A stretch of DNA of 64,000 nt. Source: Escherichia coli. GTDB taxonomy: Bacteria > Pseudomonadota > Gammaproteobacteria > Enterobacterales > Enterobacteriaceae. The notes under the pieces are model-generated. The model had not been told where the DNA came from. It was given only the letters and a program-made list of their open reading frames with translations, and made no database searches. Position numbers and translations under genes: made by a program. This document shows positions 8,784-39,604 of the stretch, in pieces; positions within the stretch are counted from its first letter, which is position 1, and the number at the start of each line of letters is the position of its first letter. The stretch is from assembly GCF_013315695.1 (NCBI RefSeq), contig NZ_CP054353.1. One strand, given 5' to 3'.

Positions 8784-8859
8784 GCCGATATAGCTCAGTT
8801 GGTAGAGCAGCGCATTCGTAATGCGAAGGTCGTAGGTTCGACTCCTATTATCGGCACCA
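8784..8859 (+). tRNA. thrW: tRNA-Thr (anticodon CGU)
   Basis: 76 nt, gccgatatagctcagttggtagagcagcgcattCGTaatgcgaaggtcgtaggttcgactcctattatcggcacca. It folds as a cloverleaf with an encoded CCA end, downstream of proA as in E. coli. Confidence 0.95.
8841..8859 (+). other. attL core (thrW 3' end, actcctattatcggcacca)
   Basis: Near-identical copies occur in inverted orientation at 32590..32608 (18 of 19 nt) and, degenerate, at 39506..39523. Confidence 0.75.
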
Positions 8860-8971
8860 TTCAAACATCTCCCCAAGTCTACTAAAGTCTTTCAAAACCC
8901 CTTATAATCCGCGTATTAAAGCCCCGTTCGTCTTTTGACGTCTACTAAAGTCCCTCAAAATCTACGGTCAG

Positions 8972-8993
8972 ATGGGGGTACTTATGGGGGTAT
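8972..8993 (+). repeat. Putative integrase arm-type site (atgggggtacttatgggggtat)
   Basis: The inverse complement recurs with 21 of 22 identity at 39583..39604, about 60 nt from the degenerate att copy. A third half-site, gtaccccca, lies at 9015..9023. Two copies of gtctactaaagtc sit upstream at about 8877 and 8941. Confidence 0.55.
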
Positions 8994-9024
8994 TTGCTGT
9001 TCGGTTTAGTGGAGGTACCCCCAA

Positions 9025-10239
9025 GTGAAACTCAATGCCCGTCAAATAGACACAGCCAAGCCAAAAGAGAAGGCTTACAAGCTGGCCGATGGTGGCGGTT
9101 TGTATCTCTTGGTAAAACCTAATGGAGGTAAATACTGGCGACTTAAATATCGTGTAGCTGGTAAAGAGAAGCTATTGGCACTAGGTGTTTATCCTGAGGT
9201 TACTCTAGCCGATGCTCGGGCAAAACGTGAAGATGCGAAAAGAGGTATCGCTGGTGGTATCGAACCGATGGAAGCGAAACGAGAGGAAAAGATTGCCCGG
9301 GAAACGCAGTTAAACAACACCTTCAAAGATATTGCCCTTGAGTGGCACAGCAGCAAATTAAAAAAATGGTCTGCTGGTTATGCTTCAGACATCCTCGAAG
9401 CCTTCAACAAAGATGTGTTCCCTTACATTGGCAAAAAACCCATCGCCGAAATCAAACCACTTGAACTTCTGAATGTGCTGCGTCGCATCGAGGGGCGCGG
9501 TGCTACAGAAAAAGCCAAAAAAGTGAGGCAACGGTGCGGGGAAGTTTTCCGCTATGCAATAGTCACTGGTCGCGCAGAGTATAACCCTGCACCAGACCTT
9601 ACTAGCGCGATGCAAGGCCATGAATCTAATCATTACCCTTTCCTTACAGCCAAAGAATTACCTGATTTTTTCAAGGCATTGTCCAGTTACTCAGGAAGCG
9701 CATTGGTTGTTATGGCGGCTCGTCTACTGATTATCACCGGCTTGCGGACTGGCGAACTACGTGGCGCATTATGGGATGAAATTGATTTCAACAAGGCTAT
9801 CTGGGAGATACCCGCTTCACGTATGAAAATGCGGCGGCCTCATATTGTGCCATTGTCTGAGCAGGCTCTTTCGCTTATTGGGAAGATTAGAGAAATAACA
9901 GGCAATTACCCTCTTATGTTTCCCGGGCGCAATGATCCAAGGAAAACAATGAGCGAGGCCAGCATAAACCAAGTGTTTAAGCGCATTGGCTACGCTGGAC
10001 GTGTAACTGGTCATGGGTTCCGGCACACTATGAGTACGATTTTGCATGAGCAGGGCTATAACACTGCGTGGATAGAAACGCAGCTCGCTCACGTTGATAA
10101 GAACTCAATTCGTGGCACATACAACCATGCGCAATATCTGGATGGAAGGCGGGAGATGCTTCAATGGTATGCCGACTATATGGATTCTCTCGAGCATGGC
10201 GGAAATGTGGTGCATATGGTGTTTGAAAAACACGCATGA
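9025..10239 (+). CDS. Tyrosine recombinase, P4-family integrase
   Basis: 404-aa ORF with a GTG start. The N-terminus MKLNARQIDTAKPKEKAYKLADGGGLYLLVKPNGGKYWRLKYR is typical of P4-like integrases. The C-terminus has HGFRHT and a conserved Tyr region. It sits directly next to the tRNA. Confidence 0.9.
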   Translation: MKLNARQIDTAKPKEKAYKLADGGGLYLLVKPNGGKYWRLKYRVAGKEKLLALGVYPEVTLADARAKREDAKRGIAGGIEPMEAKREEKIARETQLNNTFKDIALEWHSSKLKKWSAGYASDILEAFNKDVFPYIGKKPIAEIKPLELLNVLRRIEGRGATEKAKKVRQRCGEVFRYAIVTGRAEYNPAPDLTSAMQGHESNHYPFLTAKELPDFFKALSSYSGSALVVMAARLLIITGLRTGELRGALWDEIDFNKAIWEIPASRMKMRRPHIVPLSEQALSLIGKIREITGNYPLMFPGRNDPRKTMSEASINQVFKRIGYAGRVTGHGFRHTMSTILHEQGYNTAWIETQLAHVDKNSIRGTYNHAQYLDGRREMLQWYADYMDSLEHGGNVVHMVFEKHA

Positions 10240-10491
10240 AACAACTGGACAAGTATACAGAGGTTTACTAAAGTATAAGGGAGTAGATTGATAAAAACTC
10301 ACAGAGGATTGCTATTTAACAGTTAGCCATGGAGAAGGGCAATCGCTCTTTTAACAACGAAGATGGAATCTTCTACGCAGCTGAAAAGCTGGATGCTCTT
10401 TAACAGCCTTTGGTGCTTTTCTGATGCAGGAAAGAATAGGGATACATGCACCTTTACAATGCATGTAATGATTCATCCATGAGGCTGCGGA

Positions 10492-10515
10492 GCGCTGACA
10501 AAGCGCAATTGCTCT
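10492..10515 (+). repeat. 24-nt exact direct repeat, copy 1 (gcgctgacaaagcgcaattgctct)
   Basis: Identical to 10605..10628. It lies in the int/alpA intergenic region. Confidence 0.8.
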
Positions 10516-10604
10516 TTAACATTGATGTGGGCGGGATGGTTCGTCCCGCAGTGACCGATAGATTTCTATCGGGAAACATACAATGATTCAAATATGAATC
10601 TACG

Positions 10605-10628
10605 GCGCTGACAAAGCGCAATTGCTCT
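10605..10628 (+). repeat. 24-nt exact direct repeat, copy 2
   Basis: Identical to 10492..10515, with 113 nt spacing. The two copies fall in different reading frames, so they are not coding repeats. Confidence 0.8.
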
Positions 10629-10890
10629 CTTGCCTGCCCACCATGCCCTGAAAAAGGGCGTTCTTTAAAACTACTGGATGTCACGCCTAATAGCGTGATC
10701 CTGCCGAAATGCAGGGTAGCTCTACCCTTGTGGAGCAAACAAACCAAAACAATCTGACTATCTTTTATAAAAGACCGCAATATGTTTTTCATATTGTGGT
10801 CTTTGGCGTATTCGACATTTGACGCAAATAAAACTCTCGCCATTCGTTGCAGGAGGGGGTTATTGCGTCATTAGTACAGGATATTAATAA

Positions 10891-11094
10891 ATGGCTAATT
10901 ACAATTCATTAATTCGTCTCTCTGAAGTTCAAAGGCGAACTGGTTATAGCAAAGCATGGATTTATCGTCTTATTAGTCAGGGGAGGTTCCCTAAACAGGT
11001 AAAAATTGGAAGTCGGGCAATTGCTTTTGTTGAGTCTGAAATAGATGAATGGATTGAGAAGTGTATATTAGAATCTAGAGACGAGGTGGCCTGA
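10891..11094 (+). CDS. AlpA-family (Xis/Vis-like HTH) regulator
   Basis: 67 aa, with ...IRLSEVQRRTGYSKAWIYRLISQGRFPKQVKIGSRAIAFVESEIDEWI, the AlpA/prophage CP4-57 regulatory pattern. Confidence 0.85.
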   Translation: MANYNSLIRLSEVQRRTGYSKAWIYRLISQGRFPKQVKIGSRAIAFVESEIDEWIEKCILESRDEVA

Positions 11095-11525
11095 TGGAAA
11101 AGAAAAACCGCCCATTACAGGCGGCTAATTCAGATATTCGTGTATCTGATGTTACGCCCCTTACAAAATCCCTTCAAGCACCAAAGCGCACACCGAAAAA
11201 GCATCGTGCCAGAGTCTATATGCTGCGTACTGGTATAGAGGGATGGACAGAAAATGACATTCTTCGCTACTGCCGTCTGTCTTCTGGTCGTAACTATGCA
11301 ACAGAGTTAGAACGCCAGCTTGGAATCACTCTGGAGCGTATCGACGAAAAGAATCCTGATGGTATCGGAACACACCTTCGCTACCGTTTCTCCTGCCGTG
11401 GTGATGTTCTGAAAGTGATCACTCATGTTAACCATCTTGCGAACATAAATGATCACAACGGACTTTCTCAGCAGGAAATTGCCGACATTCTGAAACTCTA
11501 CCCGGACGCGTTTAACGCCGCCTAA
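11094..11525 (+). CDS. Hypothetical protein (143 aa)
   Basis: Its start overlaps the alpA-like stop (TGATG). No family recognised. Confidence 0.55.
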   Translation: MEKKNRPLQAANSDIRVSDVTPLTKSLQAPKRTPKKHRARVYMLRTGIEGWTENDILRYCRLSSGRNYATELERQLGITLERIDEKNPDGIGTHLRYRFSCRGDVLKVITHVNHLANINDHNGLSQQEIADILKLYPDAFNAA

Positions 11526-11537
11526 CGGAGACTGAAA

Positions 11538-12371
11538 ATGAACATCGAAAAAAGCAGATTAATTTCTGAGGCCGCCCCTCATCTGAACGCCTCTCTGGGC
11601 ACAATTAACGGTAATGAATTTGCCGCAATTGTCCCGGTTATTCCTGGTCATATCGGTGGGCGTGAAACCAATATTGTTAGCGCAAAAGCGTTACACAAAG
11701 CGTTGGGCGTGGGAAAAGACTTCTCTACATGGATCACTGATCGCATCTCTGAATATGACTTCACCATTGGGCACGATTACTCAGTCCATAAAACAATTTC
11801 CCCAAATTTGGGGAAAAGCCCGAATGGCGCGGCTTACAGCAAGATAAAGCACTCTGGCAGACCCGGTAAAGACTATCTGTTAAGTGTCGGAATGGCGAAA
11901 GAACTGGCAATGATCGAACGCAATGATCAGGGTCGCGCTATCCGCCGTTATTTCATCCAGTGCGAGGAAGAATTACAGCGTAGCGTTCCTGAAATCGCCG
12001 CCCGCTATCGTCGCCAGCTAAAAGCCCGTCTCAGTGCCGCAAACAACTTTAAGCCAATGTGCGATGCGCTGAATATGGCCCGTGCCGAGATGGGTAAAAC
12101 GACGCAGCAACACCACTACACAAACGAGAGCAATATGATTTCTCGTATCGTTCTTGGTGGGCTAACTGCTAAGCAGTGGGCGCGGATAAATGGCTATTCT
12201 GGCGAACCTCGCGACCATATGAACGCAGAACAGCTTGAGCACCTCTCATATCTCGAAAGCACCAATATCACGTTAATTGATATGGGCATGGAATATGAGC
12301 AGCGCAAAGGAGAACTCACCCGCCTGTCGCAACGCTGGCTCGCCAAGCGTCTGGAGGCGGTCCATGTTTAA
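11538..12371 (+). CDS. AntA-type phage antirepressor-like protein
   Basis: 277 aa. The central region SAKALHKALGVGKDFSTWITDRISEYDFTIGHDY...DYLLSVGMAKELAMIERNDQGRAIRRYFIQCE matches the AntA/AntB antirepressor domain as I remember it. Confidence 0.65.
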   Translation: MNIEKSRLISEAAPHLNASLGTINGNEFAAIVPVIPGHIGGRETNIVSAKALHKALGVGKDFSTWITDRISEYDFTIGHDYSVHKTISPNLGKSPNGAAYSKIKHSGRPGKDYLLSVGMAKELAMIERNDQGRAIRRYFIQCEEELQRSVPEIAARYRRQLKARLSAANNFKPMCDALNMARAEMGKTTQQHHYTNESNMISRIVLGGLTAKQWARINGYSGEPRDHMNAEQLEHLSYLESTNITLIDMGMEYEQRKGELTRLSQRWLAKRLEAVHV

Positions 12372-12546
12372 GCCGACAGGAACACCACAACCTCAAAAAC
12401 GCTACAAAGATGCCCACGGAGCACTCGTTACTGTCGAAAGCGTGTCTCACAACCGAGTGACGTTTTATCGCGACGGGTATCAATCGCCATGCGTACAACC
12501 GCTGGCGCGCTTCATGAAGGAGTTCGCGGAGGTTAACAAATGCTAA
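12364..12546 (+). CDS. Small protein, DUF4222-like
   Basis: Internal ATG 12364 of ORF 12277..12546 overlaps the upstream stop. MFKPTGTPQPQKRYKDAHGALVTVESVSHNRVTFYRDGYQSPCVQPLARF resembles the DUF4222 prophage family. Confidence 0.5.
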   Translation: MFKPTGTPQPQKRYKDAHGALVTVESVSHNRVTFYRDGYQSPCVQPLARFMKEFAEVNKC

Positions 12547-13201
12547 CCGTCCAGAAGAAGATATTTTCACTGGCTGGTATGTCACCAAAATCCAGCAATA
12601 TGACAGCAAAGTCTGGCATTAATACAGCAGATACAAGCAAAGTTTATCATTTTCTGGTGGTAGGAGCGGATGCCTTAACTATGTCAGAAATTACGGTCGA
12701 TGGTGTTAGCGTTGAGAAGGTCAGCGGCTGCGCCAGAGAATTTCTGGTCGTAGATGGCTTTCTCTGCTCGCGTAGTGACTCCACAAAAACCTTCGTCCAT
12801 ACGCGCGACGTTAACGAAATGAGCGCGATGTATTGTGCATCTGGTGCTTCCAATACTGAGTTTTCGGAGTCCATAAAAAAGAGCTTGCCGTTATGCGGCA
12901 ACACGGTTTATGGTTATAAGGCACCTCATAAAACGGGTGCCGGGATTGGCGTCCTGAAAATTCTGAAGGCGACATATGACGCGCCGAGCGTCTTTTTTTA
13001 TGTCGTAGGTCTGACTCACCCATTTTTTGGGCGTTGGTGTATAATCCAGCGCCTTTGTCAATCAATGGTGGCTCAGGCGGGGGCTTCTTCGGAAGCGCCG
13101 GTATCCTTCAGAGCCGGTTACGCCAACCCTGTCTGGGCTACCACCAGCGAAATTGGCGTTTCCGGTGGTAGCGTAACCTGCTATCTGAAGGAGGCTGCCA
13201 C
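12540..13201 (+). CDS. 5' two-thirds of a 355-codon open frame, possibly an Ash-family-like protein. The true 3' end is unresolved.
   Basis: ATG 12540 overlaps the upstream stop (ATGCTAA). The frame stays open to 13607. From 13202 onward better-supported genes occupy the DNA, and 13068..13180 looks like structured RNA. Confidence 0.3.
13068..13180 (+). ncRNA. Candidate C4/CI-like antisense immunity RNA
   Basis: Three hairpins lie directly upstream of the icd-like gene. The first is a UUCG-loop stem at 13083..13096. The second is ccgg/ccgg at 13098..13117; its loop tccttcaga (13104..13112) is complementary to tctgaagga (13184..13192) across the icd-like Shine-Dalgarno. The third is a 9-bp stem, 13137..13145 with 13164..13172. 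The ends of the RNA are not defined. Confidence 0.35.
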
Positions 13202-13396
13202 ATGCTGGCTACTACCCCTACCCAAAAACCGCAATTTATCTGGATTATCGCCGCAGTTCGCCGCGATTGCCCGACAATTACCGCCAAAATTCATCATATT
13301 GCTGCCGAGTCTGAACGCGATGCTCGCCGTTCTCTGGTGCGCGATCACGTCTGCTTTTTTGCTGGTCGTATCCGCATGGAGGTGGCACATGATTAA
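13202..13396 (+). CDS. Icd-like (host cell division inhibitor-like) small protein
   Basis: 64 aa starting MLATTPTQKPQFIWIIAAVRRDCPT, recalled as the Icd-like family. A strong SD (gaaggagg) precedes ATG 13202. Confidence 0.6.
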   Translation: MLATTPTQKPQFIWIIAAVRRDCPTITAKIHHIAAESERDARRSLVRDHVCFFAGRIRMEVAHD

Positions 13397-13607
13397 AACC
13401 TACGATGTGCATATGGATCCCCTCGAACGCACAAGCCAGATCATCACACTGACAGAAGTGATTAACGACATTCTGGTGAGCAACTCTCCCTCACGAGACG
13501 AAAGGCTGAAGGCGTTACTCGCGATATTGGATCTCGCCGTTCGTGACGTTCATTTCCTGCTGGAAGGTGGCGAAATGCCAGGAAAAACGGGGGCAACCAA
13601 TGAATAA
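13389..13607 (+). CDS. Hypothetical small protein (72 aa)
   Basis: ATG 13389 overlaps the icd-like stop (ATGATTAA). It starts MIKTYDVHMDPLERTSQIITL. Confidence 0.5.
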   Translation: MIKTYDVHMDPLERTSQIITLTEVINDILVSNSPSRDERLKALLAILDLAVRDVHFLLEGGEMPGKTGATNE

Positions 13608-13794
13608 CTCAATTAATACCCCTCGCCTTACGTCCGCACTTCAATTAATCGAGCAAGCAGCGGCTGTCCTGGTTGCTGTCAGTCTTTCGGCTGAAGAAAT
13701 GGACGCTGCTGATGTCGTGGATGCGATTAAAGCGTGCTCATCTTTGGTTAACGATGCCCGTGCCGAGCTGGTAATTCTTGGGGGTGAAAAATGA
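13600..13794 (+). CDS. Hypothetical small protein (64 aa)
   Basis: Internal ATG 13600 of ORF 13543..13794 overlaps the upstream stop. It starts MNNSINTPRLTSALQLIEQAAA. Confidence 0.5.
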   Translation: MNNSINTPRLTSALQLIEQAAAVLVAVSLSAEEMDAADVVDAIKACSSLVNDARAELVILGGEK

Positions 13795-14054
13795 ATATCA
13801 ACTTAATTTATCGTCATCCGTGTGAGCTGGAAATTGAATCATTGCTGGGGCGTGAAGAGCCATATCCAGACTCATTCACTCCCGCAGATTGCGCGACTGA
13901 ACGGCTTACCAGAGCGCGCACAGGTCTGGTTCATGTGATGAATGAGATTGTTCCCTCGGTGGGAGGGGAACAGGCGACAGTAATCAATAGCTGGCTACAA
14001 AAAGTTACCTCCCTGATAGATATCGGTTTAATCGATGTGGAGAGTGCGAAATGA
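13791..14054 (+). CDS. Hypothetical small protein (87 aa)
   Basis: ATGA start/stop overlap with the upstream gene. It belongs to the coupled operon. Confidence 0.55.
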   Translation: MNINLIYRHPCELEIESLLGREEPYPDSFTPADCATERLTRARTGLVHVMNEIVPSVGGEQATVINSWLQKVTSLIDIGLIDVESAK

Positions 14055-14272
14055 CCAACATCCAGCTCATTGAAGCGCAATGTCGCATCGAACAGGTTCA
14101 GACTGTTTTAGGGTTCTGGCTTGAAGGGGCCAGCCCCAGCAACAGAGACAAGTTAATGATTGGCGCGGTTATGTCACTGCTCAATGGCGTACCAGAAGCT
14201 ATTCAGGAAGCGGACGAATTGTTGGGCAAATATGAGTTACAGAATCATTCAGGCGAGGCGAAACATGAATAA
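14051..14272 (+). CDS. Hypothetical small protein (73 aa)
   Basis: ATGA overlap with the upstream gene. Confidence 0.55.
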   Translation: MTNIQLIEAQCRIEQVQTVLGFWLEGASPSNRDKLMIGAVMSLLNGVPEAIQEADELLGKYELQNHSGEAKHE

Positions 14273-14867
14273 TTTCTTAACTTTCCATGCAGAAGCAACG
14301 CCTGACGGCGTAAACATCATGTACCGCAGCAACGATGGCATGACAGAACGCGTTGAGGCCGTCTCATATATTGATGCCGTAAATCGTCTGGATGCCGGGG
14401 ATTATGACGATAAACCAGATGAAGGTATGTCAATACATCTCGCTATTGCCGATGGCGGCAACCAGGGATATTTCGATTACACATCACAGCATAACGTCAT
14501 TATGTGGAGATGGCTGATCGCAACAGTATTCATGCTGGAAATGAGAGAGGAAAACGGCACTGTCAGCATCATTGATGATACTGGCAATCCTTCCGAAGTG
14601 GCTGTTTATTCCAACGGCATCGTCGCCATGCCGCTGTATCCAGTAGCAGAGCGCCTCGCTATGGCAAACAACATTGAGGGCGCGATGATAGAACGTTTTG
14701 GCATCGAGTCTGGCACAGAACGCGCCATCATTTTCTACAGAGCCATGATGGATGTGGAACAAGGAGCACTGACTCCATTTGGTCGTGAAACGCTTGCTGA
14801 ACTTCACAACAGCTTTATAGCTGAACTGAATGAAAACGGCATGCCAGCGGAACCAGTGACGCACTGA
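14265..14867 (+). CDS. Hypothetical protein (200 aa)
   Basis: ORF track 14160..14867. I use ATG 14265 (MNNFLTFHAEATPDG), which overlaps the upstream stop. Confidence 0.55.
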   Translation: MNNFLTFHAEATPDGVNIMYRSNDGMTERVEAVSYIDAVNRLDAGDYDDKPDEGMSIHLAIADGGNQGYFDYTSQHNVIMWRWLIATVFMLEMREENGTVSIIDDTGNPSEVAVYSNGIVAMPLYPVAERLAMANNIEGAMIERFGIESGTERAIIFYRAMMDVEQGALTPFGRETLAELHNSFIAELNENGMPAEPVTH

Positions 14868-14877
14868 GGATGGAGCC

Positions 14878-15219
14878 ATGATTACTAAAAATTTCCGACT
14901 GAATGCGCTGGCAAATAAGTATGCGTCGGCACTGTATAACCACATTACCTCCACCAGCGGCGGGGACTATTTCATGGTTGATGCGGACGGCGAGGCCGTA
15001 CGTGTGGAAATCGTCAATGGAGTAAAAGGCGTTCGCAGCCTGATCGATAGCTACACACTGGCAGCCATGAAAGTGTTCTACCCGCAGTGGGAAACCGTGG
15101 GGATCGAGCTTCTTGAGCGTTGCGTCACTAAGGACGGATTGACTGACGTCGGGCGTGAGATATGGCAAAGCATGGTTAATGACATGGGCGCAACTGTAGC
15201 GGGAGGTTCTCATGCGTGA
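14878..15219 (+). CDS. Hypothetical protein (113 aa)
   Basis: The SD ggatggag precedes the ATG. Its C-terminal motif DGLTDVGREIWQSMV is shared with both neighbouring genes. Confidence 0.55.
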   Translation: MITKNFRLNALANKYASALYNHITSTSGGDYFMVDADGEAVRVEIVNGVKGVRSLIDSYTLAAMKVFYPQWETVGIELLERCVTKDGLTDVGREIWQSMVNDMGATVAGGSHA

Positions 15220-15583
15220 AAATGCAGAAATGGCGCTTAGCTCCGCAATCGGAGAGCAGGTGGCAAAGATTGCTGGTGCTGTGTGGATTCATAACCTTCA
15301 TTCTACTGGTGAAGAGAAAATGGCAATTCAGACGCCAGAGGGACGCACCATTACTACATCTCTGAAGCCGTCAGATGTTTGTGATCTGATTTGCGCATTC
15401 ATGTACCCAGCAATGAGGACTGTCCACGGCGATAAGTGGAAACTTGCGACAACCGCTGAATTTGATATGTGGCTAAACAATGATGGCATGCTGACTGATT
15501 ACGGAATAACCAAGTGGCAGATGCTGGTTAGCCATATCGCAAACGCTATAGACCACGTGGGGTACGGTGATGCGAAACATTGA
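15212..15583 (+). CDS. Hypothetical protein (123 aa)
   Basis: It overlaps the upstream stop. Its C-terminal motif is DGMLTDYGITKWQMLV. Confidence 0.55.
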   Translation: MRENAEMALSSAIGEQVAKIAGAVWIHNLHSTGEEKMAIQTPEGRTITTSLKPSDVCDLICAFMYPAMRTVHGDKWKLATTAEFDMWLNNDGMLTDYGITKWQMLVSHIANAIDHVGYGDAKH

Positions 15584-18326
15584 TCTTATCCGTCAGGTTA
15601 TCAGTGCGTCTGAAAACAACTGGCCTCATGTGCTGGGCTGCCTGAACATAAATGTCCCTGACTCTCCGCGCCGTCATGCTCCCTGCCCTGCATGTGGGGG
15701 CAAAGATCGATTCCGGTTCGATGACAACGGGCGCGGTAGCTTCATCTGTAATCAGTGCGGCGCTGGTGATGGGCTGGATTTAATTAAACGCGTAAATAAC
15801 TGCGACACAACAGAGGCGGCGCTTCTTGCCGCTGATGTTCTGGGTATTGATTACCGGACAACGGAAACACCAGAAGCCACCAGCCAGAAACGGGAACAAC
15901 TGGAAACCGAGCGCCAGCGACGCGAACAGGAGCGCCTGAAAAGGGCAGAGAAGGACGAACAACAAAGACGGGATACGTTTTCCCGTCAGTTTGATGACAT
16001 GCGCAGAAAGGCTGTAAACGGCAAATCTGATTATCTGGTTGCGAAAGGGGTAGGTGATTTTACATTCCCCGTGTTGCCCGATGGATCTCTGTTGCTGGCG
16101 CTGGTGGATAAATCCGGCGCAGTCACAGCAGCACAGACTATTACATCACATGGTGAAAAAAGACTCCTGACAGGTTCAGCAAAGCGGGGGGCATATCACG
16201 CCATAAACGCGCCAGAAACAACACAGAGCATCTTAATCGCAGAAGGGCTGGCAACGGCATTATCTGCCCATTTAATTCGTCCAGAGGCGCTGACAGTGGC
16301 GGCGATTGATGCCGGGAACCTGTTATATGTCGCCCAGGTACTGCGGGATAAATTTCCTTCAGCACAAATCATCATTGCTGCGGATAACGACCACAGCGAA
16401 GGAAGACAAAACACGGGGAGAATAGCAGCAGAAAAAGCAGCTTTATCTGTTTCTGGATGGGTGGCATTACCCCCGACAGATCACAAAGCAGACTGGAATG
16501 ATTACCACCAAAAACACGGCATTAAATGCGCCACAGAAGCGTTCAATAAGTCAATGTACCAACCACAGGGTAATGGCGTGAAACATGAGCCACAGACCAT
16601 TGAGGGAAGCGATTTTAAGGTTATGGATACCGACCCACTGAAACCAAGAATAGAAAGCCGCGAGGATGGTATTTATTGGGTATCTCCGAGAGCTGACAGC
16701 CAGAGTGGAGAAATCATCAATAACGAAAGCTGGTTATGTTCTCCGTTAAGCGTTATCGGTACTGGCAGAGACGATAAAGACCAGTATCTCATTCTTCGCT
16801 GGCTGTCGTTTGGTTCTGAAACGCCGACAACCGCTGCCATTCCACTGGCTGATATTGGTGAACGTGAAGGATGGCGCACACTTAAAGCTGGTGGGGTAAA
16901 TGTCACGACCAAAAGCAGCCTCAGAGCAATACTGGCAGACTGGCTACAACGCAGTGGCTCTCGTGAATTGTGGCGTGTTGCTCATGCCACTGGCTGGCAA
17001 TGCGGAGCGTACATCATGCCTGATGGGGAAATCATCGGAACACCTGAAAATCCTGTGCTGTTCAGCGGGAGAAGCTCAGCCGCAGCCGGATATACCGTCT
17101 CAGGGAGCGCGAAAAGCTGGCGTGATAACGTGGCGCGTCTGGCCTTTGGTAACTATTCAATGATGACCGGGATCGGCGCAGCACTGGCAGCGCCATTGAT
17201 TGGGCTGGTGGGCGCTGACGGGTTCGGCATTCATTTCTATGAGCAGTCGAGCGCAGGTAAGACCACCACGGCAAACGTGGCGAGCAGCTTATACGGCAAC
17301 CCTGATTTACTGCGGCTGACGTGGTACGGAACCGCGCTGGGGCTGGCAAATGAGGCCGCCGCCCACAATGACGGACTAATGCCGCTTGATGAAGTTGGTC
17401 AGGGCGCTGATCCTGTCAGCGTTTCACAGTCTGCCTATGCGTTATTTAACGGTGTAGGGAAACTGCAAGGCGCTAAAGATGGTGGAAACCGGGATCTAAA
17501 ACGCTGGCGTACAGTGGCAATCAGCACCGGAGAAATGGATTTAGAAACATTTATCGCTACTTCCGGGCGAAAAACCAAAGCCGGGCAACTGGTGCGACTG
17601 CTGAATATTCCGTTGAGTAAAGCAGTACGCTTTCACGATTACCAGAACGGAAAACAGCACGCAGACGCACTGAAAGACGCTTACCAGCATCACCACGGCG
17701 CGTCCGGGCGTGAGTGGATTAAATGGCTGGCAGACCACCAGCAACAGGCTATTAAAACCGTTCGTGACTGCGAAAGCAGATGGAGAAGCCTGATCCCATC
17801 CGATTATGGTGAGCAGGTTCACCGTGTAGCCGCGCGATTTGCCATTCTGGAGGCCGCATTGTTGTTAGGCGAGGTTGTAACAGGCTGGGATGCTCAGACA
17901 TGCCGTGATGCGATACAGCACAGCTATAACGCATGGTTGCGCGAGTTCGGCACAGGTAACAAAGAGCATCAGCAGATTATTGAACAAACGGAGGCATTTC
18001 TTAATGCCTATGGGCTTAGCCGTTTTGCACCATTTCCATACAGCCCGGCAGATTTGCCCATCAAAGATTTAGCCGGATACCGTCAGCGTGGAGAACATGA
18101 CGAAAGCCCAATGATTTTCTACACATTCCCGGCCACATTTGAAAAGGAGATCGCATGTGGTTTCAACGCAAAACAGTTTGCTGAAGTGTTGAAAAAAGCC
18201 GGGATGCTAACCCCACCAAACAGCGGTCGTGGATACCAAAGAAAATCACCACGTATTCAGGGACGACAAATAAACGTTTATGTACTCAATTACCAGCCAG
18301 GAGATTATAACTCATCTGAAGAATGA
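15567..18326 (+). CDS. Primase-helicase (P4 alpha-like: Zn-ribbon, Toprim, DUF927-type NTPase)
   Basis: 919 aa. It has CPACGGKDRFRF...FICNQCG (Zn ribbon), IIAADNDHSEGRQNTG (Toprim acidic motif) and a Walker A-like YEQSSAGKTT. The start could be GTG 15567 or ATG 15570. Confidence 0.9.
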   Translation: MMRNIDLIRQVISASENNWPHVLGCLNINVPDSPRRHAPCPACGGKDRFRFDDNGRGSFICNQCGAGDGLDLIKRVNNCDTTEAALLAADVLGIDYRTTETPEATSQKREQLETERQRREQERLKRAEKDEQQRRDTFSRQFDDMRRKAVNGKSDYLVAKGVGDFTFPVLPDGSLLLALVDKSGAVTAAQTITSHGEKRLLTGSAKRGAYHAINAPETTQSILIAEGLATALSAHLIRPEALTVAAIDAGNLLYVAQVLRDKFPSAQIIIAADNDHSEGRQNTGRIAAEKAALSVSGWVALPPTDHKADWNDYHQKHGIKCATEAFNKSMYQPQGNGVKHEPQTIEGSDFKVMDTDPLKPRIESREDGIYWVSPRADSQSGEIINNESWLCSPLSVIGTGRDDKDQYLILRWLSFGSETPTTAAIPLADIGEREGWRTLKAGGVNVTTKSSLRAILADWLQRSGSRELWRVAHATGWQCGAYIMPDGEIIGTPENPVLFSGRSSAAAGYTVSGSAKSWRDNVARLAFGNYSMMTGIGAALAAPLIGLVGADGFGIHFYEQSSAGKTTTANVASSLYGNPDLLRLTWYGTALGLANEAAAHNDGLMPLDEVGQGADPVSVSQSAYALFNGVGKLQGAKDGGNRDLKRWRTVAISTGEMDLETFIATSGRKTKAGQLVRLLNIPLSKAVRFHDYQNGKQHADALKDAYQHHHGASGREWIKWLADHQQQAIKTVRDCESRWRSLIPSDYGEQVHRVAARFAILEAALLLGEVVTGWDAQTCRDAIQHSYNAWLREFGTGNKEHQQIIEQTEAFLNAYGLSRFAPFPYSPADLPIKDLAGYRQRGEHDESPMIFYTFPATFEKEIACGFNAKQFAEVLKKAGMLTPPNSGRGYQRKSPRIQGRQINVYVLNYQPGDYNSSEE

Positions 18327-31369: not shown

Positions 31370-31382
31370 ATCATTCAATGCA

Positions 31383-32583: not shown

Positions 32584-32589
32584 TTTAAA

Positions 32590-32751: not shown

Positions 32752-34029
32752 ATGAGATACAAGCCCAATCAATACATAATCTGTGATTCTTACGGTAACT
32801 ACTATTTGAGGATCACGTTGCCTGTGTATATGCAGCCCTTTTTTGAAGGAAAAAGGACGTTTGTCAGAAGTCTGCACACAAGTAGTCTTCGTGTTGCACG
32901 TAGAAAGCGTGATCAGATTGCAGATGAATACCATTGTCTACGGGAGAGTGTCGCCCCTGTAAACAGCACAATAGAGAACACGCTGGAACTGTTACGCAGT
33001 AAGGCTAAATACGCCAAAACAGCTACCAGAATGCAAGATACAGCGTCTTCGTGTCCGTCATTGCTTAAAATTCTTGAAATCTACCTGACAATTAACAGCA
33101 CGAAGAAGAAGCCAGCCACTTTAGCTAAGGCAAGAAAAGCGGTAGAGATGTTTCTCTCCTACCGTAAAAAGCCTGATATTGCATTGCAAGATGTAAGCCG
33201 CACCACTGTTACAGGCTGGATAGAACACATGCAAAAAACCCTTTCACAACAATCAATTGCAAATTATATCAGCCCAATGGCCCAGCTATGGGAGTTAGCT
33301 TCATCACGTTACCACGATGCGCCAGAAAGGGCGCTCTCCCCCTGGCGAGGGCATAGGCTTGATGTGGCACAAAGTAGAGAGAGCTACGAGGCATTTTCTA
33401 ACAAAGAGCTATTGCAGGTGTTGCAAGTATTTTCCGGTGATTCAGCAGAAAACAAAGAAATGATGGCTTTGTGTCTTATCGGTGCTTATACAGGTATGCG
33501 GATCAATGAGATAGCAAGTCTCACAATAGACGATGTGAAAGAGATCGAAGGTGTGCTGTGTTTTGAAATCACACAGGGAAAAACGAAAGCTGCGGCACGT
33601 CTTGTGCCTGTGCATAGCCTTATCACTCCGTTGGTGTTGTCGCTGCGTGAAAAGCCTCATAATGGCTTTTTGTTCTATCACGCCAGCATTACAGAGCGTG
33701 CTGATGGTAAACGTTCCACGTGGCACACGCAGAGATTTACAAGAGCTAAACGAAAGGCTTTAGGGGAAAAGGGAACAGAAAGGAAGGTGTTTCATTCTCT
33801 GAGACACGGAGTAGCACAGCTTCTTGATCGAAATCAAATTCCAGAAGACAGGATCGCCCTTCTCCTGGGCCATACACGCGGCAATACAGAGACATTCCGC
33901 ACATATAGCAAGAATGCAGCTTCTCCAGTAGAGCTTAAAAACTATATTGAGCTTCTACGCTACCCTGAAATAGAGAAAGGCTTATCAATCAATAAAAAAT
34001 CAAATTTAATGCGCAAAACAACGCCATAG
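32752..34029 (+). CDS. Tyrosine recombinase/integrase
   Basis: ORF track 32695..34029. I prefer ATG 32752 (MRYKPNQYIICDSYGNYYLRITLP), which follows the SD ggggag. The C-terminus has HSLRHG...LLGH...Y motifs. Confidence 0.85.
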   Translation: MRYKPNQYIICDSYGNYYLRITLPVYMQPFFEGKRTFVRSLHTSSLRVARRKRDQIADEYHCLRESVAPVNSTIENTLELLRSKAKYAKTATRMQDTASSCPSLLKILEIYLTINSTKKKPATLAKARKAVEMFLSYRKKPDIALQDVSRTTVTGWIEHMQKTLSQQSIANYISPMAQLWELASSRYHDAPERALSPWRGHRLDVAQSRESYEAFSNKELLQVLQVFSGDSAENKEMMALCLIGAYTGMRINEIASLTIDDVKEIEGVLCFEITQGKTKAAARLVPVHSLITPLVLSLREKPHNGFLFYHASITERADGKRSTWHTQRFTRAKRKALGEKGTERKVFHSLRHGVAQLLDRNQIPEDRIALLLGHTRGNTETFRTYSKNAASPVELKNYIELLRYPEIEKGLSINKKSNLMRKTTP

Positions 34030-34110
34030 ACGCAATAAAGAGGCTTCAACATAGATTGGTAGCCTCTTTTATAATTACATCGTTACAGAGCGTTTTAGAG
34101 GCATTTACGG

Positions 34111-34824
34111 CTATTCCTGTTTAAAGGCAGGAGTAATAGTGTCTTCACCTTCACTACTTGATTTTTCAGTGTTAACACGTTTTTTCATATTCGCCCCGAT
34201 GTTCTTAGATGGCTGTGTTTTGATAGCTACAGTGTTTACAGTACCATAAGAAACTAATCTTATTTGTTCAAAGCTAAGATCAAATACCAGGGATTCGCTT
34301 GCCTCTTCTGTGTATTCGATGCCTGTTAAAACAACGTTCTCAAAAGTTTTATTTTCTGTAACAAGAAGAAAAGGCTGTCTACTGTCCATAATCTGATTCA
34401 AGTAGTCTATAGCTAATGATCTTCTGTTCCCGTTCACCCCTGCACTCTTTAACAAGCCAGGATCGCTTTTAATCGGTGTTTCAGTGATACGCCCTTTAAG
34501 AGAGAACTTATTGTTTTTAATTTGAACGTGATCAGACACAGTAGCACCATTTTCTACGGGGTAGCTTGTGACATCTGCCGAACGTCTCACGTTCACATCG
34601 TCAACACTATCAAAGGCCAGTGCCATATAATTTTCATAAACGTCATTACCAGAAGATGCCAAGCCACTGGTAACAATAGCAAATCCGTTCTCTCCTTTTG
34701 TTTTATTAGCTTTGCTATTTTCGTTTTTTGTAGAATTTATATCTTGTTCTGCTTTGTAAACAGCCTGAACGTGTTGTTCTGGAGTATTTGCTGCACGTAT
34801 GGTTAAAATCCCGGCGGTCGCCAT
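34111..34824 (-). CDS. Phage tail protein, Dit-like (distal tail / baseplate N-terminal domain)
   Basis: 237 aa. ...RSADVTSYPVENGATVSDHVQIKNNKFSLKGRITETP...FLLVTENKTFENVVLTGIEYTE...LVFDLSFEQIR resembles Dit-like tail proteins. It follows a tape-measure-like ORF. Confidence 0.45.
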   Translation of the reverse strand: MATAGILTIRAANTPEQHVQAVYKAEQDINSTKNENSKANKTKGENGFAIVTSGLASSGNDVYENYMALAFDSVDDVNVRRSADVTSYPVENGATVSDHVQIKNNKFSLKGRITETPIKSDPGLLKSAGVNGNRRSLAIDYLNQIMDSRQPFLLVTENKTFENVVLTGIEYTEEASESLVFDLSFEQIRLVSYGTVNTVAIKTQPSKNIGANMKKRVNTEKSSSEGEDTITPAFKQE

Positions 34825-34846
34825 AATAATAATTTTCCTTGTAATG

Positions 34847-35799
34847 TTATGGCGGGAATTCCCCGCCGTTGGATTGTCCTGATAAGCTGGTTAATGTTAA
34901 TGATTTCAAGAAGCTATCCCGACTTGCTCTCGCTGTAAAATCCACATAATCGCTCAATCGTCCGGTGTCTGATTCGATAGTTAGCGGCACTTCTGTTACC
35001 ACTTCAAATGTAGGATTCAGATTAAACACAGGAGATAAATTATAAGCTGGAGTTGTCATTGCAAGATTATTTAAAGCACCCTGTTTGAGATTGGTTATCG
35101 GTGCTTCATTGACTGACATTTTTACATCTGACACAGAAGAATTATCATCGAAAAGCAATCCCTTAATTGTGTTAAAGAGAGAATGACTATTATCAGGTGT
35201 AGTTGTTGCAGTGCCAGCGCCTTTATATTGATTAGGAACGAGATTAGAAAGATTCTGTTTCATCCCTTCATTGCTTAATGGCGGTGCATCACCCATATTT
35301 TTCTGAATAGCATCTGTCTTATCATCATTACGATTAAACCAGTTTACAATCTTCATAATAGCTTCAAAGAGACTTCCTGTAGCTTCTCCCAGCTTCGTAA
35401 AATACGGAGTGAGATTAGAAAGGTTTTTCATAAACTCTTCCGTTACTTTTGGATCGAGAGATTTCATAAAGCCGTCTACGAATGCTACTTGTCTTGCATC
35501 AGAAAGCTGTGAAAGCTGTCTGTTTAGTTCTCTGAATTTAACAATAGAGTCTTGCTGTGTTTCTGTTAGCCATTTTCCAGAGGCTTTTTGCTGATTAATA
35601 CTTTCTTGTACATCTTTAACGGAACGTTGCCAATATTTTGACGTAAGCATCAAATCATCGCCCAGGTCTTCTAAACGTTGTCCAATTTGGGAGTCTGAAA
35701 ACCCTTTTTTCATCATTCCATTAACAGCCTTAGAAATTAATCCAGCCGGATTATCAGCAAATTTTTTAAGGTCGCTTTTGTTAATAACACCGATGTTTA
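34847..35799 (-). pseudogene. C-terminal part of a tape-measure-like tail protein, cut by IS2
   Basis: The first residues (MSGDSGGQS) of ORF 34847..35827 are encoded by the IS2 end. The rest is Gln/Asn/Ser-rich and helical. No upstream half is found beyond IS2. Confidence 0.4.
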
Positions 35800-35890
35800 T
35801 AGACTGGCCCCCTGAATCTCCAGACAACCAGTATCACTTATTTAAGTGATAGTCTTAATACTAGTTTTTAGACTAGTCATTGGAGAGCAG

Positions 35891-36256
35891 ATGATTGATG
35901 TCTTAGGACCGGAGAAACGCAGACGGCGTACCACACAGGAAAAGATCGCAATTGTTCAGCAGAGCTTTGAACCGGGGATGACGGTCTCCCTCGTTGCCCG
36001 GCAACATGGTGTAGCAGCCAGCCAGTTATTTCTCTGGCGTAAGCAATACCAGGAAGGAAGTCTTACTGCTGTCGCCGCCGGAGAACAGGTTGTTCCTGCC
36101 TCTGAACTTGCTGCCGCCATGAAGCAGATTAAAGAACTCCAGCGCCTGCTCGGCAAGAAAACGATGGAAAATGAACTCCTCAAAGAAGCCGTTGAATATG
36201 GACGGGCAAAAAAGTGGATAGCGCACGCGCCCTTATTGCCCGGGGATGGGGAGTAA
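35891..36256 (+). CDS. insC: IS2 OrfA (InsC)
   Basis: Starts [33 protein letters not shown] at ATG 35891. The ORF track begins upstream at 35846. Confidence 0.92.
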
Positions 36257-37119
36257 GCTTAGTCAGCCGTTGTCTCCGGGTGTCGCGTGCGCAGTTGCAC
36301 GTCATTCTCAGACGAACCGATGACTGGATGGATGGCCGCCGCAGTCGTCACACTGATGATACGGATGTGCTTCTCCGTATACACCATGTTATCGGAGAGC
36401 TGCCCACGTATGGTTATCGTCGGGTATGGGCGCTGCTTCGCAGACAGGCAGAACTTGATGGTATGCCTGCGATCAATGCCAAACGTGTTTACCGGATCAT
36501 GCGCCAGAATGCGCTGTTGCTTGAGCGAAAACCTGCTGTACCGCCATCGAAACGGGCACATACAGGCAGAGTGGCCGTGAAAGAAAGCAATCAGCGATGG
36601 TGCTCTGACGGGTTCGAGTTCTGCTGTGATAACGGAGAGAGACTGCGTGTCACGTTCGCGCTGGACTGCAGTGATCGTGAGGCACTGCACTGGGCGGTCA
36701 CTACCGGCGGCTTCAACAGTGAAACAGTACAGGACGTCATGCTGGGAGCGGTGGAACGCCGCTTCGGCAACGATCTTCCGTCGTCTCCAGTGGAGTGGCT
36801 GACGGATAATGGTTCATGCTACCGGGCTAATGAAACACGCCAGTTCGCCCGGATGTTGGGACTTGAACCGAAGAACACGGCGGTGCGGAGTCCGGAGAGT
36901 AACGGAATAGCAGAGAGCTTCGTGAAAACGATAAAGCGTGACTACATCAGTATCATGCCCAAACCAGACGGGTTAACGGCAGCAAAGAACCTTGCAGAGG
37001 CGTTCGAGCATTATAACGAATGGCATCCGCATAGTGCGCTGGGTTATCGCTCGCCACGGGAATATCTGCGGCAGCGGGCTTGTAATGGGTTAAGTGATAA
37101 CAGATGTCTGGAAATATAG
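36214..37119 (+). CDS. insD: IS2 OrfB transposase (InsD)
   Basis: 301 aa starting [30 protein letters not shown], with a DDE integrase core. Confidence 0.92.
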
Positions 37120-37432
37120 GGGCAAATCCATTAACACATAAGCAATCAGTATGATTGGTTAGGTGATTACTCTTACTGCGCACAGCGCAATAGATTTCTT
37201 CGTGGGCGTTACCGCCAACGAAGTTACACGAAGAAAGTAACGCTTTGCTTTCGGTGTGAGCGGAACGGGCCAGCCACGAAGCCCGAAAGGTAGCGGAGTA
37301 AGGCTGCTTGCCAGAGAGTGAAGCTAACGCCGGAAGGCAAAAGATCATATATATAGATATAAAGAATATTATTATTATGATCTAATTAATAATCTAATAT
37401 AGTTTTATTAATAGTCTTATTGTAGTTCACAG

Positions 37433-38274
37433 TGACCTACCCCCTAGCTCACTATGACCTACCGTTACTACCAATCATCACATAGCACTCACTCTGTGTA
37501 ATGCCTTTCTATGTGTGTGCCATAATCCCCTATATTCCCTGTGTAAATCATAGAATATCCCTAACTTATTCCTGTGTAATTCCATACTAAAAATTCAATG
37601 AAAAGTAGCTTAAAAGTGCAATTCTTACTTTCTTCACTTTTACATCACTTTCGCAAATCCTTGTGTAGTGCGGCCTACAGAGCACCATCAGAAATTGTTG
37701 GCTAAAAATTGTTCTGCTTGTTTCTTAACGAGTTTTCTCGTTTGTGCAAATTTTAAAATTTATTTTGTTTTTACAGCCTTATTTCGTGTAATGCGTGGCA
37801 TAGCAAGCCCTTTTCTTGTGTTGTCAAGACATTTGGCAACGTTCAAACATCTGTTTAGAAATGCCAAATTGTTGATCTAACAAATAAACCTGTATAAACA
37901 GAACACCATTTAATCTATTCCCCTGTGTAATCCACTACATCACACAATAAAAACAAAAAAACCTTTAATTATGTTTCATAGCATACAAAAGTCAACAGAA
38001 GCCCTCTCGTGCTCCTACGTAAAAAATCCATCACTTTTCCCCTGATACATCAACTCAAGGCGTTCTATGTGTTCCTTAGTGCATATTACGTTTATTATGT
38101 TAAATTGATTTTGGCCTATATTTTGACCTGCACCCGCATAAACACTGGTTTCATCGCTTACACTCCTTGTGAGACGTGGTGCTGTTTCTAGCATCTGATC
38201 CGACATAAAACCGATCATTCTCGTGTTTAGTGAAAGTTTAGTGAGAGACATTACAGAAAGGCTTTCTGTGTAAT
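37433..38274 (+). repeat. Field of dispersed short direct repeats (consensus YCCTGTGTAAT, plus TGACCTACC x2)
   Basis: ctgtgtaat-type copies occur at 37494, 37539, 37572, 37923 and 38266. Degenerate copies are at 37661 and 37784, and one inverted copy at 38944..38952. tgacctacc occurs at 37433 and 37455. The DNA is AT-rich with no credible ORF across 37350..38014. Confidence 0.6.
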
Positions 38275-38398
38275 GATTTAATAGGTAAAAACGATGTTGA
38301 TTACGCAAGAAAATTCCTTGCTGATATTTGGGGATTCTGGATTTTCCAGATCGGGGGGCGCTGAAAATCGCGTTAAGCACCTCTCGCAATCTAGCCAT
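38015..38398 (-). CDS. Hypothetical protein (127 aa)
   Basis: This is the only sizeable ORF in the AT-rich field. No family was recognised, and it contains one ctgtgtaat copy. Confidence 0.3.
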   Translation of the reverse strand: MARLREVLNAIFSAPRSGKSRIPKYQQGIFLRNQHRFYLLNHYTESLSVMSLTKLSLNTRMIGFMSDQMLETAPRLTRSVSDETSVYAGAGQNIGQNQFNIINVICTKEHIERLELMYQGKSDGFFT

Positions 38399-38414
38399 AA
38401 GGGAAGGGATATAG

Positions 38415-38580
38415 GTATTTAGATGTATTTATAGCTATTTATGGCTATTTATTTTTTATTTGCCTTTATTTAAAAATAACCTTATAAATCAATAAGATAC
38501 ACAACTATCTGTTTATATTTTAATCAATTAAATCAAGTTTAATACCCTTAAATCACCTGAAAATACCCTTAAATACCCCA
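38415..38580 (+). repeat. AT-rich tract with tatttat/gctatttat units and aatacccttaaat x2
   Basis: gtatttatagctatttatggctatttatttttt lies at 38425..38457. aatacccttaaat occurs at 38541..38553 and 38562..38574. The layout resembles a DNA-unwinding element next to iterons. Confidence 0.45.
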
Positions 38581-38742
38581 ATAATTAATTTTAAGGTTTT
38601 CCGTGTTCTCTTCTGCATTATGAAAATGCAAAATAAGGCACAAAACAAGCGCACAGACGCATTAAACACACATCACCTATACATCCCTATACCAAGCAAT
38701 GAAAATAGCGTTAGAATGCGTCCTGTTGCGTTCTGGAGATTT

Positions 38743-38901
38743 TCAGAAATCCTCTCTAAGCCATTTCAACTCATTAAGGAGTTTTCTTTCTTCGTTCTCT
38801 CTCTGTTTACGCTCTAGCCAGGCTTTTCCTTCTGGCGTAGACAGGAACTTACGAGCGTGAATCTTGCGGTTATTACGTTTGATAGCTGCAATGTTTTTCA
38901 T
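38743..38901 (-). CDS. Possible small basic protein (52 aa)
   Basis: MKNIAAIKRNNRKIHARKFLSTPEGKAWLERKQRENEERKLLNELKWLREDF. It is below the ORF-track cut-off and no homology was recognised. Confidence 0.25.
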   Translation of the reverse strand: MKNIAAIKRNNRKIHARKFLSTPEGKAWLERKQRENEERKLLNELKWLREDF

Positions 38902-39505
38902 CGTGTGCCTCTGTATTCATATGAAAATTAACAAGTTACATACTACACAGGGAGACTACGCATAAAACACAATACAAGTAAAGATACATTTTCAAGACAA
39001 TAGGAGCCATAAAGCGCCTTTGATGGGCTACCCCAAAAAATAAGCGCCGTAGGCGTATCCACTAAAAGGGCTTTTTCACAAAAGCTATGAAGTCTTAGCA
39101 GTTCTTCTCTTATCAGGCACCCGTTGTACTCCGGTGGACGAAACCGTGCTAGAGCTTGATTCTTTCCCGATCAAGTTAGGTTTTGAAGAGGTGGGCTTTG
39201 ATCCACTATTGCACTTAAAACTCTTCCCATCATTTAGCCTGTTTATCCTCTGCAACGTCTCACGACGTGTAGCATCATTGGACACCGCGCCAGGTGTGGA
39301 ACATCTTGCTAAGAGTTTTGGTAGAAGGTTTAGAGACGGTGGCACGTCTTCCAGCTTCAAAGGAACTTGTTACGAGGTTGAGCCTGGGAACTACTCGCCC
39401 ATACGTGTTACACTACCAAAGCCCATAACAACGTATAGGCGTTTGTAAGTGATAACAGAAGATACAATTTCTTAGAGAAGTTAAGCTAAGTTATTGATTT
39501 TCTTG

Positions 39506-39523
39506 ATTGTGCGATAATAGGAA
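39506..39523 (-). other. Degenerate thrW 3'-end repeat (att copy between E1 and E2)
   Basis: ttgtgcgataataggaac compared with tggtgccgataataggagt, the reverse complement of the thrW end. The 11-nt core cgataatagga matches exactly. An arm-type repeat lies 60 nt away. Confidence 0.5.
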
Positions 39524-39582
39524 CAATACACATAGGCGATAAGCTTTGTTTTTGTTGCCTTTTTTATTGTTCATTTTTTATA

Positions 39583-39604
39583 GATACCCCCAAAAGTACC
39601 CCCA
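39583..39604 (-). repeat. Putative integrase arm-type site, second copy
   Basis: atacccccaaaagtacccccat is the reverse complement of atgggggtacttttgggggtat. It matches 8972..8993 at 21 of 22 positions. Confidence 0.55.

Follow-up and report, generated by a model that had tools for sequence, protein, structure and literature searches.

Tandem integrative elements at the tRNA gene thrW of Escherichia coli and their separation by an IS1 inversion

Introduction

Tandem arrays of integrative elements at tRNA genes (tDNA) have been catalogued, with Islander listing 125 that have at least two members and 4 that have at least three (PMC4383910). The tRNA-Thr gene thrW of Escherichia coli is a listed integration hot spot (PMC7545054), and Sp1 and Sp2 of O157 Sakai are both located there (PMC8190617). 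Another occupant is EcCIMP1 of E. coli MP1, a 19,963-bp phage-inducible chromosomal island (PICI) in tRNA-Thr between proA and yagU (ISME J 2025, PMC11773190), which is flanked by the core TCCTATTATC, has a Sanger-verified boundary and adjoins a second island (PMC11773190). EcCIMP1 excises on induction of the helper phage Kapi1, for which int and alpA are needed, and helper-induced excision, replication and packaging have been shown for this pair (PMC11773190). Here, we describe a stretch of 64,000 nucleotides of E. coli DNA (contig NZ_CP054353.1; hereafter the window) in which thrW carries two integrative elements, designated E1 and E2, and the scar of a third, designated E3. The window corresponds to the reverse complement of part of the E. 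coli MSB1_4I chromosome (NZ_LR898874.1), from an isolate taken by human rectal swab. Several of the genome comparisons given below were made by reading sequences directly, not by BLAST.

The element family, the attachment (att) core and the tandem-array phenomenon are already published, and the locus is an ordinary new instance of them to which an inversion mediated by the insertion sequence IS1 has been added. As in the arrays described by Islander and TIGER (PMC4383910), one end is formed by the intact tDNA, every member comes with a separate integrase gene and a separate displaced tDNA fragment, and all fragments are in direct orientation once the inversion is undone. The locus differs from those arrays in that its third member is reduced to a scar that keeps part of an integrase gene and lacks a distal tDNA fragment, and in that the IS1 inversion breaks the array, so that an orientation filter like that of Islander would reject it as it stands.

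Organization of the Array

Three unrelated tyrosine-integrase elements have very probably accumulated at thrW by site-specific integration, and an IS1 inversion has then split the array. The complete thrW gene for tRNA-Thr(CGT), with the anticodon CGU (8784..8859, plus strand; ARAGORN and RefSeq annotation), stands at one end, and its 3′ end, ACTCCTATTATCGGCACCA (8841..8859, plus strand), forms the attL core of the array. When the whole window was searched for this sequence with up to three mismatches, a single other match was found on the minus strand at 32590..32608, with one mismatch (18/19) and a chance expectation of 0.01 in shuffled sequences; the original prediction had placed an inverted recurrence at this position, and the match is unique in the window. 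This copy, att-right (ACTCCTCTTATCGGCACCA), functions as attR for E2 and as attL for the E3 scar. A further copy, att-mid (39507..39523, minus strand), reads TTCCTATTATCG-CACAA, with a gap of one nucleotide relative to thrW, and is the attR of E1, adjoining the left end of E2 (TCAAGAAAATC...). The 11-mer TCCTATTATCG is confined within the window to 8843..8853 and 39512..39522 (minus strand), with a chance expectation of 0.00; a copy with this exact core had been predicted at 39506..39523 and is real, although it begins one position later.

The present order of the window is explained by four copies of IS1 (21626..22393, minus strand; 25129..25896, minus strand; 45808..46575, plus strand; and from 63495 onward, plus strand), of which the first, copy A, lies at the gp20/gp16 junction of E1 and the third, copy C, in a flavin oxidoreductase gene. 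In the left flank of copy A, GGGTGATTA (21617..21625) is the reverse complement of 45799..45807, and in its right flank, GAATAAACG (22394..22402) is the reverse complement of 46576..46584. Because the two 9-bp target duplications are each split between copies A and C, a single inversion of 22394..45807 accounts for the arrangement, and it is thereby proven that two ordinary IS1 insertions, each with its 9-bp duplication, recombined to produce the inversion. Matches at other IS1 flanks (I1 and I3), which extend a few bases past IS1, proved spurious, and direct reading left only the duplications of copies A and C as real. When 21625 is joined to 45798, gp20 and gp16 become contiguous again, and WP2-W18-ESBL-08 is collinear with this reconstruction at 99.2% identity from window position 10660 across the junction to 43673. 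In a sister strain with identical protein accessions, AF3 (NZ_OZ547117.1), the whole array is natively uninverted, in the order thrW, E1, att-mid, E2, att-right, integrase fragment, yagU. The restored order that had been proposed for the window is therefore the one seen in AF3, and the split duplications and the native AF3 order agree that all att copies become direct when the inversion is undone.

AF3 also has an IS1 directly upstream of gp16 (AF3 locus 3954..4716), where about 10.8 kb of E1, from alpA through gp20, are deleted and no inversion is found. The AF3 deletion and the inversion in the window look like two different outcomes of what may be the same IS1 insertion.

The independence of the members is evident from other genomes, in which each is found at thrW apart from the others: E1 alone in WP2-W18 and CP53, E2 alone in OkiPb01701, and the scar only in 2021CK-00607. 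A single inseparable E1+E2 unit is contradicted by the genomes examined. The integrases of E1 (404 residues) and E2 (425 residues) are full length with different domain sets and that of E3 is a 3′ fragment; the three are mutually unrelated outside the catalytic fold. Displaced 3′ fragments of the tDNA follow E1 (att-mid) and E2 (att-right), direct after the inversion is undone and natively so in AF3. Three cores and integrases of three families are present and the members occupy the site independently, and the proposal that at least three elements used thrW in succession is supported, also by the comparison with thrW islands of other E. coli. E3, which lacks a distal tDNA fragment, is a scar and not a countable member of the array.

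Each integrase would have recombined its own attP core with the 3′ end of thrW, leaving the intact tRNA gene on the left and the displaced fragment on the right. If each newcomer used the intact gene, the order of arrival would have been E3, E2 and E1, with the newest element nearest to thrW. Among the six arrays or sites examined, E1 is always the thrW-proximal member, irrespective of its partner, which fits integration of this kind. Later, one IS1 would have entered E1 between gp20 and gp16 and another a distant oxidoreductase gene, and homologous recombination between them would have inverted 23.4 kb.

E1, an Island of the EcCIMP1 Type

By its sequence, E1 is a variant of the already published PICI EcCIMP1. 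Its left part (8860..21625, plus strand; Pfam and PHROG assignments) consists of the P′ arm, int, alpA, an antirepressor gene, ash, a primase gene and P22-like gp14, gp7 and gp20, and ends at the target duplication beside IS1 copy A; its right part (39524..45798, minus strand; PHROG assignments) holds a gp16-like ejection protein gene, accessory genes, the genes for PerC and a PRiA4_ORF3 protein, and the P arm. Together, the two parts (8860..21625 plus 45798..39524) give a length of about 19.06 kb, excluding IS1. The integrase is of the P4 type, with Arm-DNA-bind_3, Phage_int_M and Phage_integrase domains (Pfam; 9025..10239, plus strand), and is identical to IntS_1 of EcCIMP1 at 403 of 404 residues. 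The AlpA-family regulator or excisionase (10891..11094, plus strand; Pfam Phage_AlpA, 7e-20) shares its protein accession with MP1, and the primase is of the TOPRIM/DUF927 type (Pfam and PHROG). At the nucleotide level, identity to EcCIMP1 of MP1 is 98% over 8023..20372 and 99.7% over 41572..39509. This close identity, combined with the gene order int, alpA, primase, places E1 with EcCIMP1 among the Gram-negative PICIs. In the MP1 record, TCCTATTATC repeats are exactly 19,963 bp apart, which is the published length of EcCIMP1, and in E1 the same direct repeat is found at 8843..8852 and 39522..39513.

E1 and EcCIMP1 share the thrW site between proA and yagU, the gene order, the core TCCTATTATC, the 22-mer arms described below and many identical protein accessions; in MP1, the island likewise stands in tandem with a second island (the vat island) and the same lambdoid integrase scar. 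The differences are that E1 is split by IS1, with its halves inverted relative to each other, that its gp20/gp16 and accessory region diverge, and that its tandem partner is E2 in place of the vat island; E1 is known from its sequence, whereas mobilization has been demonstrated for EcCIMP1.

The P22-like ejection cassette of E1 is complete, with gp14, gp7, gp20 and gp16 (19080..21630 and 43693..45798), and IS1 is located exactly between gp20 and gp16. A cassette of this kind is consistent with a helper that resembles P22, as Kapi1 does. Two sets of iteron-like repeats, with GTTGGTTCA units or TGAACCAAC on the other strand, are found at 18352..18456, directly downstream of the primase gene, and at 41540..41683, upstream of perC, and are mutually inverted in the restored order; these are candidate origin sequences for PICI replication. 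Between int and alpA, an exact 24-nt direct repeat, GCGCTGACAAAGCGCAATTGCTCT, occurs at 10492..10515 and 10605..10628, 113 nt apart, and falls inside a 129-residue open reading frame (ORF) on the minus strand. A PADLOC search of the accessory ORFs of E1 and E2 gave no matches to defence genes.

Arms and Right Boundary of E1

The P′ arm of E1 contains the 22-mer ATGGGGGTACTTATGGGGGTAT (8972..8993, plus strand), with two arm-type repeats of the octamer TGGGGGTA; a third octamer, inverted, is found at 9016..9023, its end only two bases short of the GTG start of int at 9025. The 22-mer recurs once in the window, inverted and with one mismatch, as ATGGGGGTACTTTTGGGGGTAT in the P arm (39584..39605, minus strand), 60 nt from the core of att-mid. 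A recurrence at 21 of 22 positions had been predicted, and only its position was off by one (39583..39604); the predicted spacing of about 60 nt from the middle att copy, expected for the other arm of the same attP, agrees with the measured value. The arrangement of 22-mer, about 60 nt and core is identical in MP1, WP2-W18, O111:H8, NC101 and Ec-U7. The five TGGGGGTA octamers in the 64 kb, against 1.3 expected, all lie inside the two arms, and on the strength of the Arm-DNA-bind_3 domain they are putative binding sites for the arm domain of the integrase. The 22-mer is not a generic repeat, as a 34-nt stretch containing it is present in 558 of 5,426 E. coli genomes, in a median of two places per genome. 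Between the core and the 22-mer of the P′ arm, two 21-nt direct repeats, GTCTACTAAAGTCYYTCAAAA, are found at 8877..8897 and 8940..8960, and the vat island of NC101 has a similar sequence at its left end; these repeats may be binding sites for an accessory recombination protein.

The right-end module of E1, made up of the 22-mer, about 60 nt and tgtattgTTCCTATTATCG-CACCA, has six different neighbors, counting the window. It is followed by the integrase scar and yagU in WP2-W18, by an HNH/Dcm island in O111:H8 8234 and OkiPb01689 (the sequence being read for 8234), by the vat island in NC101 and MP1, by another remnant in Ec-U7, by yagP-pao in CP53, and by E2 here. When a 421-nt probe spanning the junction was used, the E. 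coli genomes fell into two classes, one matching E1 as far as 39513..39494 and the other matching thrW and the left end of E2 from 39522, and the two classes overlap in the core only, exactly at window positions 39522..39506. A contig in IMG/VR carries the attP-type junction of an E1 relative, in the order right end, core, left end, int.

The description of the middle att copy as degenerate did not hold, since nearly all of about 280 E. coli E1 right ends sampled read TTCCTATTATCG-CACCA, one G short of the GG in thrW, with varied neighbors. Four right ends in IMG/VR are also one G short, two of them behind diverged P arms. The near-universal occurrence of this form at E1 right ends suggests that the shortened core derives from attP.

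E2

E2 (32609..39506, minus strand) is a thrW island that measures 6,898 bp together with its copy of IS2 and contains genes for an integrase, a Dit-like protein and the C-terminal half of a tape-measure-like protein, with an AT-rich left end. Its integrase, with DUF6538, SAM-like and Phage_integrase domains (Pfam; 32752..34029, plus strand), reads inward from att-right. The IS2 copy (35800..37130, plus strand; 1,331 bp) has its terminal repeats and no target duplication, the flanks being GTTTA and TTAAC, and about 6.4 kb are absent beside it compared with AF3. In OkiPb01701, E2 stands alone at thrW between exact 19-bp direct repeats of ACTCCTATTATCGGCACCA, followed by yagP-paoD, and its integrase is identical to that of the window at 419 of 425 residues. 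Fuller copies of 12-13 kb are present in AF3 (locus 10990..24300) and MRE162 (locus ~7200..19230), with genes for the DUF6538 integrase, a Rep-like helix-turn-helix protein, a lambda gpE-like major capsid protein, a 610-residue tape-measure-like protein and a Dit-like distal tail protein. Genes for a terminase, a portal or lysis could not be recognized in these two copies. At full length, E2 is a conserved element of thrW that measures about 12 kb. A search of IMG/VR for the attP junction of a circular form of E2 found none, and a full-text literature search for DUF6538 returned no papers. A tentative reading, which we consider doubtful, is that E2 is a cut-down copy of an undescribed compact (~12 kb) thrW-specific phage-like family, maybe a phage satellite that supplies a few virion parts.

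The closest described island at the same gene, CP4-6 of K-12 (thrW to ptwF), resembles E2 in its tRNA target and in the placement of its integrase gene, intF, which stands at the right end beside attR and is directed toward the interior; beyond CP4-6, K-12 has a short remnant of a lambdoid integrase. However, the repeat of CP4-6 is 47 bp and that of E2 is 19 bp, the gene contents are unrelated, and yagP-pao follows in K-12 and not here. Over the catalytic domain, the identity of the E2 integrase to that of E1 and to IntF reaches only about 24% (136 residues in the case of IntF). Membership of E2 in CP4-6 was rejected on this low identity to IntF, and E2 does not show the combination of an IntF-type integrase and a 47-bp thrW repeat at ptwF by which that family is recognized. 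A fourth integrase relic was also considered at the left end of E2, where ...AAATCAATAACTTAGC... resembles the integrase end AAATCAATAAGTTA, and was rejected because its translation is stop-ridden beyond the last six codons.

The E3 Scar

E3 (32279..32589, plus strand) is best regarded as a scar of a few hundred base pairs left by a lambdoid prophage of the HK542/SfX/P22 type, and not as a prophage. It consists of a temperate-phage gene fragment (32279..32406) and the 3′ end of a lambdoid thrW-specific integrase gene (~32406..32575). The 65-codon ORF at 32386..32583 holds the catalytic-tyrosine motif of a tyrosine recombinase, GWETLEMVRRYAHL, and homology to phage integrases begins near 32406. 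The integrase fragment is about 75% identical in nucleotides to the int 3′ ends of HK542, HK75, mEpX2, mEp213 and SfX, in several of which attP is annotated as thrW-like. The fragment had been said to end 7 nt from the att copy; it is real, but the stop homologous to that of the phage genes is a TAA (32573..32575), which leaves 14 nt to att-right, and the TGA at 32581..32583 lies in a shifted frame after an internal deletion of about 30 nt. The spacing is that of HK542, in which stop (locus positions 1699..1701) and core (from 1716) are placed as they are in the window (32573..32575 and from 32590), so that the integrase ends 14 nt from a thrW-identical attP core, as in lambdoid thrW prophages. 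The locus thus resembles the P22-type int-attP module of HK542, HK75, mEpX2 and SfX in the identity of the integrase 3′ end and in the spacing from stop to core, and differs in that about 170 nt of the integrase are left, with the internal deletion, and in that xis and all prophage genes other than a 128-nt fragment are lacking. The 128 nt at 32279..32406 match a different temperate-phage gene (hypothetical) with 82% identity, and this joining of the integrase to an unrelated phage gene fragment indicates that the scar is itself a product of internal deletion. A complete integrase, prophage body and attR are missing, and the view that the third element was almost entirely deleted is borne out by the approximately 310 nt of phage-derived sequence that remain.

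In 2021CK-00607, which has neither E1 nor E2, thrW directly abuts the scar, which is followed by yagU, and part of the scar lies behind the vat island in Nissle 1917 and MP1. The scar is common to many lineages, as judged by the sampled rows, in which it accounts for most of about 1,450 records in identity bands of at least 95%, and it did not arise recently in this strain. In K-12 and OkiPb01701, attR is followed by another allele of about 70 nt, which shares ~77% identity with the window scar and precedes a 5′-truncated yagP and the pao operon. The distinct alleles imply that lambdoid phages used thrW more than once and that each scar was joined to host DNA by deletion.

Alternative Explanations

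The middle att copy is short (11 exact nucleotides) and imperfect, and might be fortuitous together with the nearby 22-mer, in which case everything between thrW and 32608 would belong to one composite island bounded by only two ends. This explanation is refuted and retains practically no probability, because the chance expectation for both the 11-mer and the 22-mer is close to zero, the module of 22-mer and core ends E1 beside five other neighbors elsewhere, E2 begins at exactly the same point beside thrW in other strains, and the position is the published, Sanger-verified boundary of EcCIMP1 (PMC11773190); the copy is a genuine element boundary, as a comparison with related genomes was expected to reveal. 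The integrase fragment directly beside the att of E2, with no att copy on its far side, could also be read as a degraded second E2 integrase or as native backbone and not as a third element. This reading is very improbable and is likewise refuted, since the fragment abuts thrW in a strain without E1 and E2 and directly follows E1 in WP2-W18, while E2 occurs without it in OkiPb01701 and MRE162, where a different, shorter lambdoid remnant precedes yagP; moreover, the 75% identity to phage integrases is accompanied by the phage's own attP spacing.

The accumulation of three elements is less firmly ordered in time. E1 might have been present first, beside the scar as in WP2-W18, and E2 might have entered the attR of E1, with TTCCTATTATCGCACCA and not thrW as the target of its integrase. 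Alignment shows that both junction sequences are compatible with this sequence of events, and there is a documented precedent for an attR that served as secondary attB in prophage Sp10, which used the attR of prophage Rac (PMC2669165). However, att-mid differs from the 19-bp core of E2 at five positions and would have competed poorly as a target with an intact thrW, E1 is nearest to thrW at every site examined, and E2 is distal in MRE162 also, behind a CP4-6-like island; a later arrival of E2 is therefore unlikely. The deletion proposed for yagP-paoABCD may account for their absence here. A possible, though not favored, alternative is that these genes were never present in this lineage and were gained in K-12-type lineages, so that no backbone was deleted with the loss of E3. 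When the yagU loci of 80 species were searched for an exact PaoA motif beside yagU, only E. coli and Shigella were found, and the region upstream of yagU in E. albertii resembles neither arrangement, but both tests are weak, the former because it relied on an exact motif and the latter because the contig is short. Against a gain, the K-12-type lambdoid integrase remnant abuts a 5′-truncated yagP, which points to prophage-to-host deletions at this junction, and the fusion of the window scar to an unrelated phage gene fragment indicates that internal deletions did occur.

Several further points weigh against the interpretation of the locus as three successive integrations followed by an immobilizing inversion. 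The order of arrival is tentative, as E2 could have entered E1 attR. Strand exchange by E1 may take place inside TCCTATTATC or in CACCA, since the single G of nearly all right ends conflicts with the GG that is kept in the IMG/VR attP-type junction (contig locus 9680..9704) and in the attR of CP53 (CP53 locus ~20040..20060). E3 has no attR of its own, and its status as an integrated element is supported by homology and position. Finally, the probable loss of mobility in this strain, considered below, is deduced from geometry.

Mobility, Implications and Neighboring Features

Because attL and attR of E1 are now about 30.6 kb apart and inverted, its integrase would flip the intervening segment and not excise E1, and we infer that E1 is immobilized. 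A lesser possibility is that the E1 integrase acts on the inverted att sites and flips the 30-kb segment together with the ecp fimbrial genes. The att sites of E2 are still direct repeats, differing at five positions, and most of its genes have been removed by IS2; given the mismatched cores (TTCCTATTATCG-CACAA and ACTCCTCTTATCGGCACCA) and this gene loss, E2 is probably locked in as well.

The locus serves as a worked example of how a tRNA hot spot layers mobile DNA and how insertion sequences then freeze the layers. At thrW, islands of the EcCIMP1 type are found beside various partners, namely E2, the vat island and the HNH/Dcm island, and this variety bears on the shuffling of virulence and defence cargo in E. 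coli. Because of the inversion, programs for island finding that require direct tDNA fragments would miss the array or misplace its bounds.

Upstream of thrW, the window contains the backbone genes prfH, pepD, gpt, frsA, crl, phoE, proB and proA (1..8670). Within the inverted segment (22394..45807), IS1 copy B (25129..25897) has no target duplication and adjoins a 5′-truncated ecpC. Compared with other strains, the 5′ end of ecpC and ecpB, ecpA, ecpR and ykgL are missing at this copy, and the operon of the E. coli common pilus is therefore inactivated.

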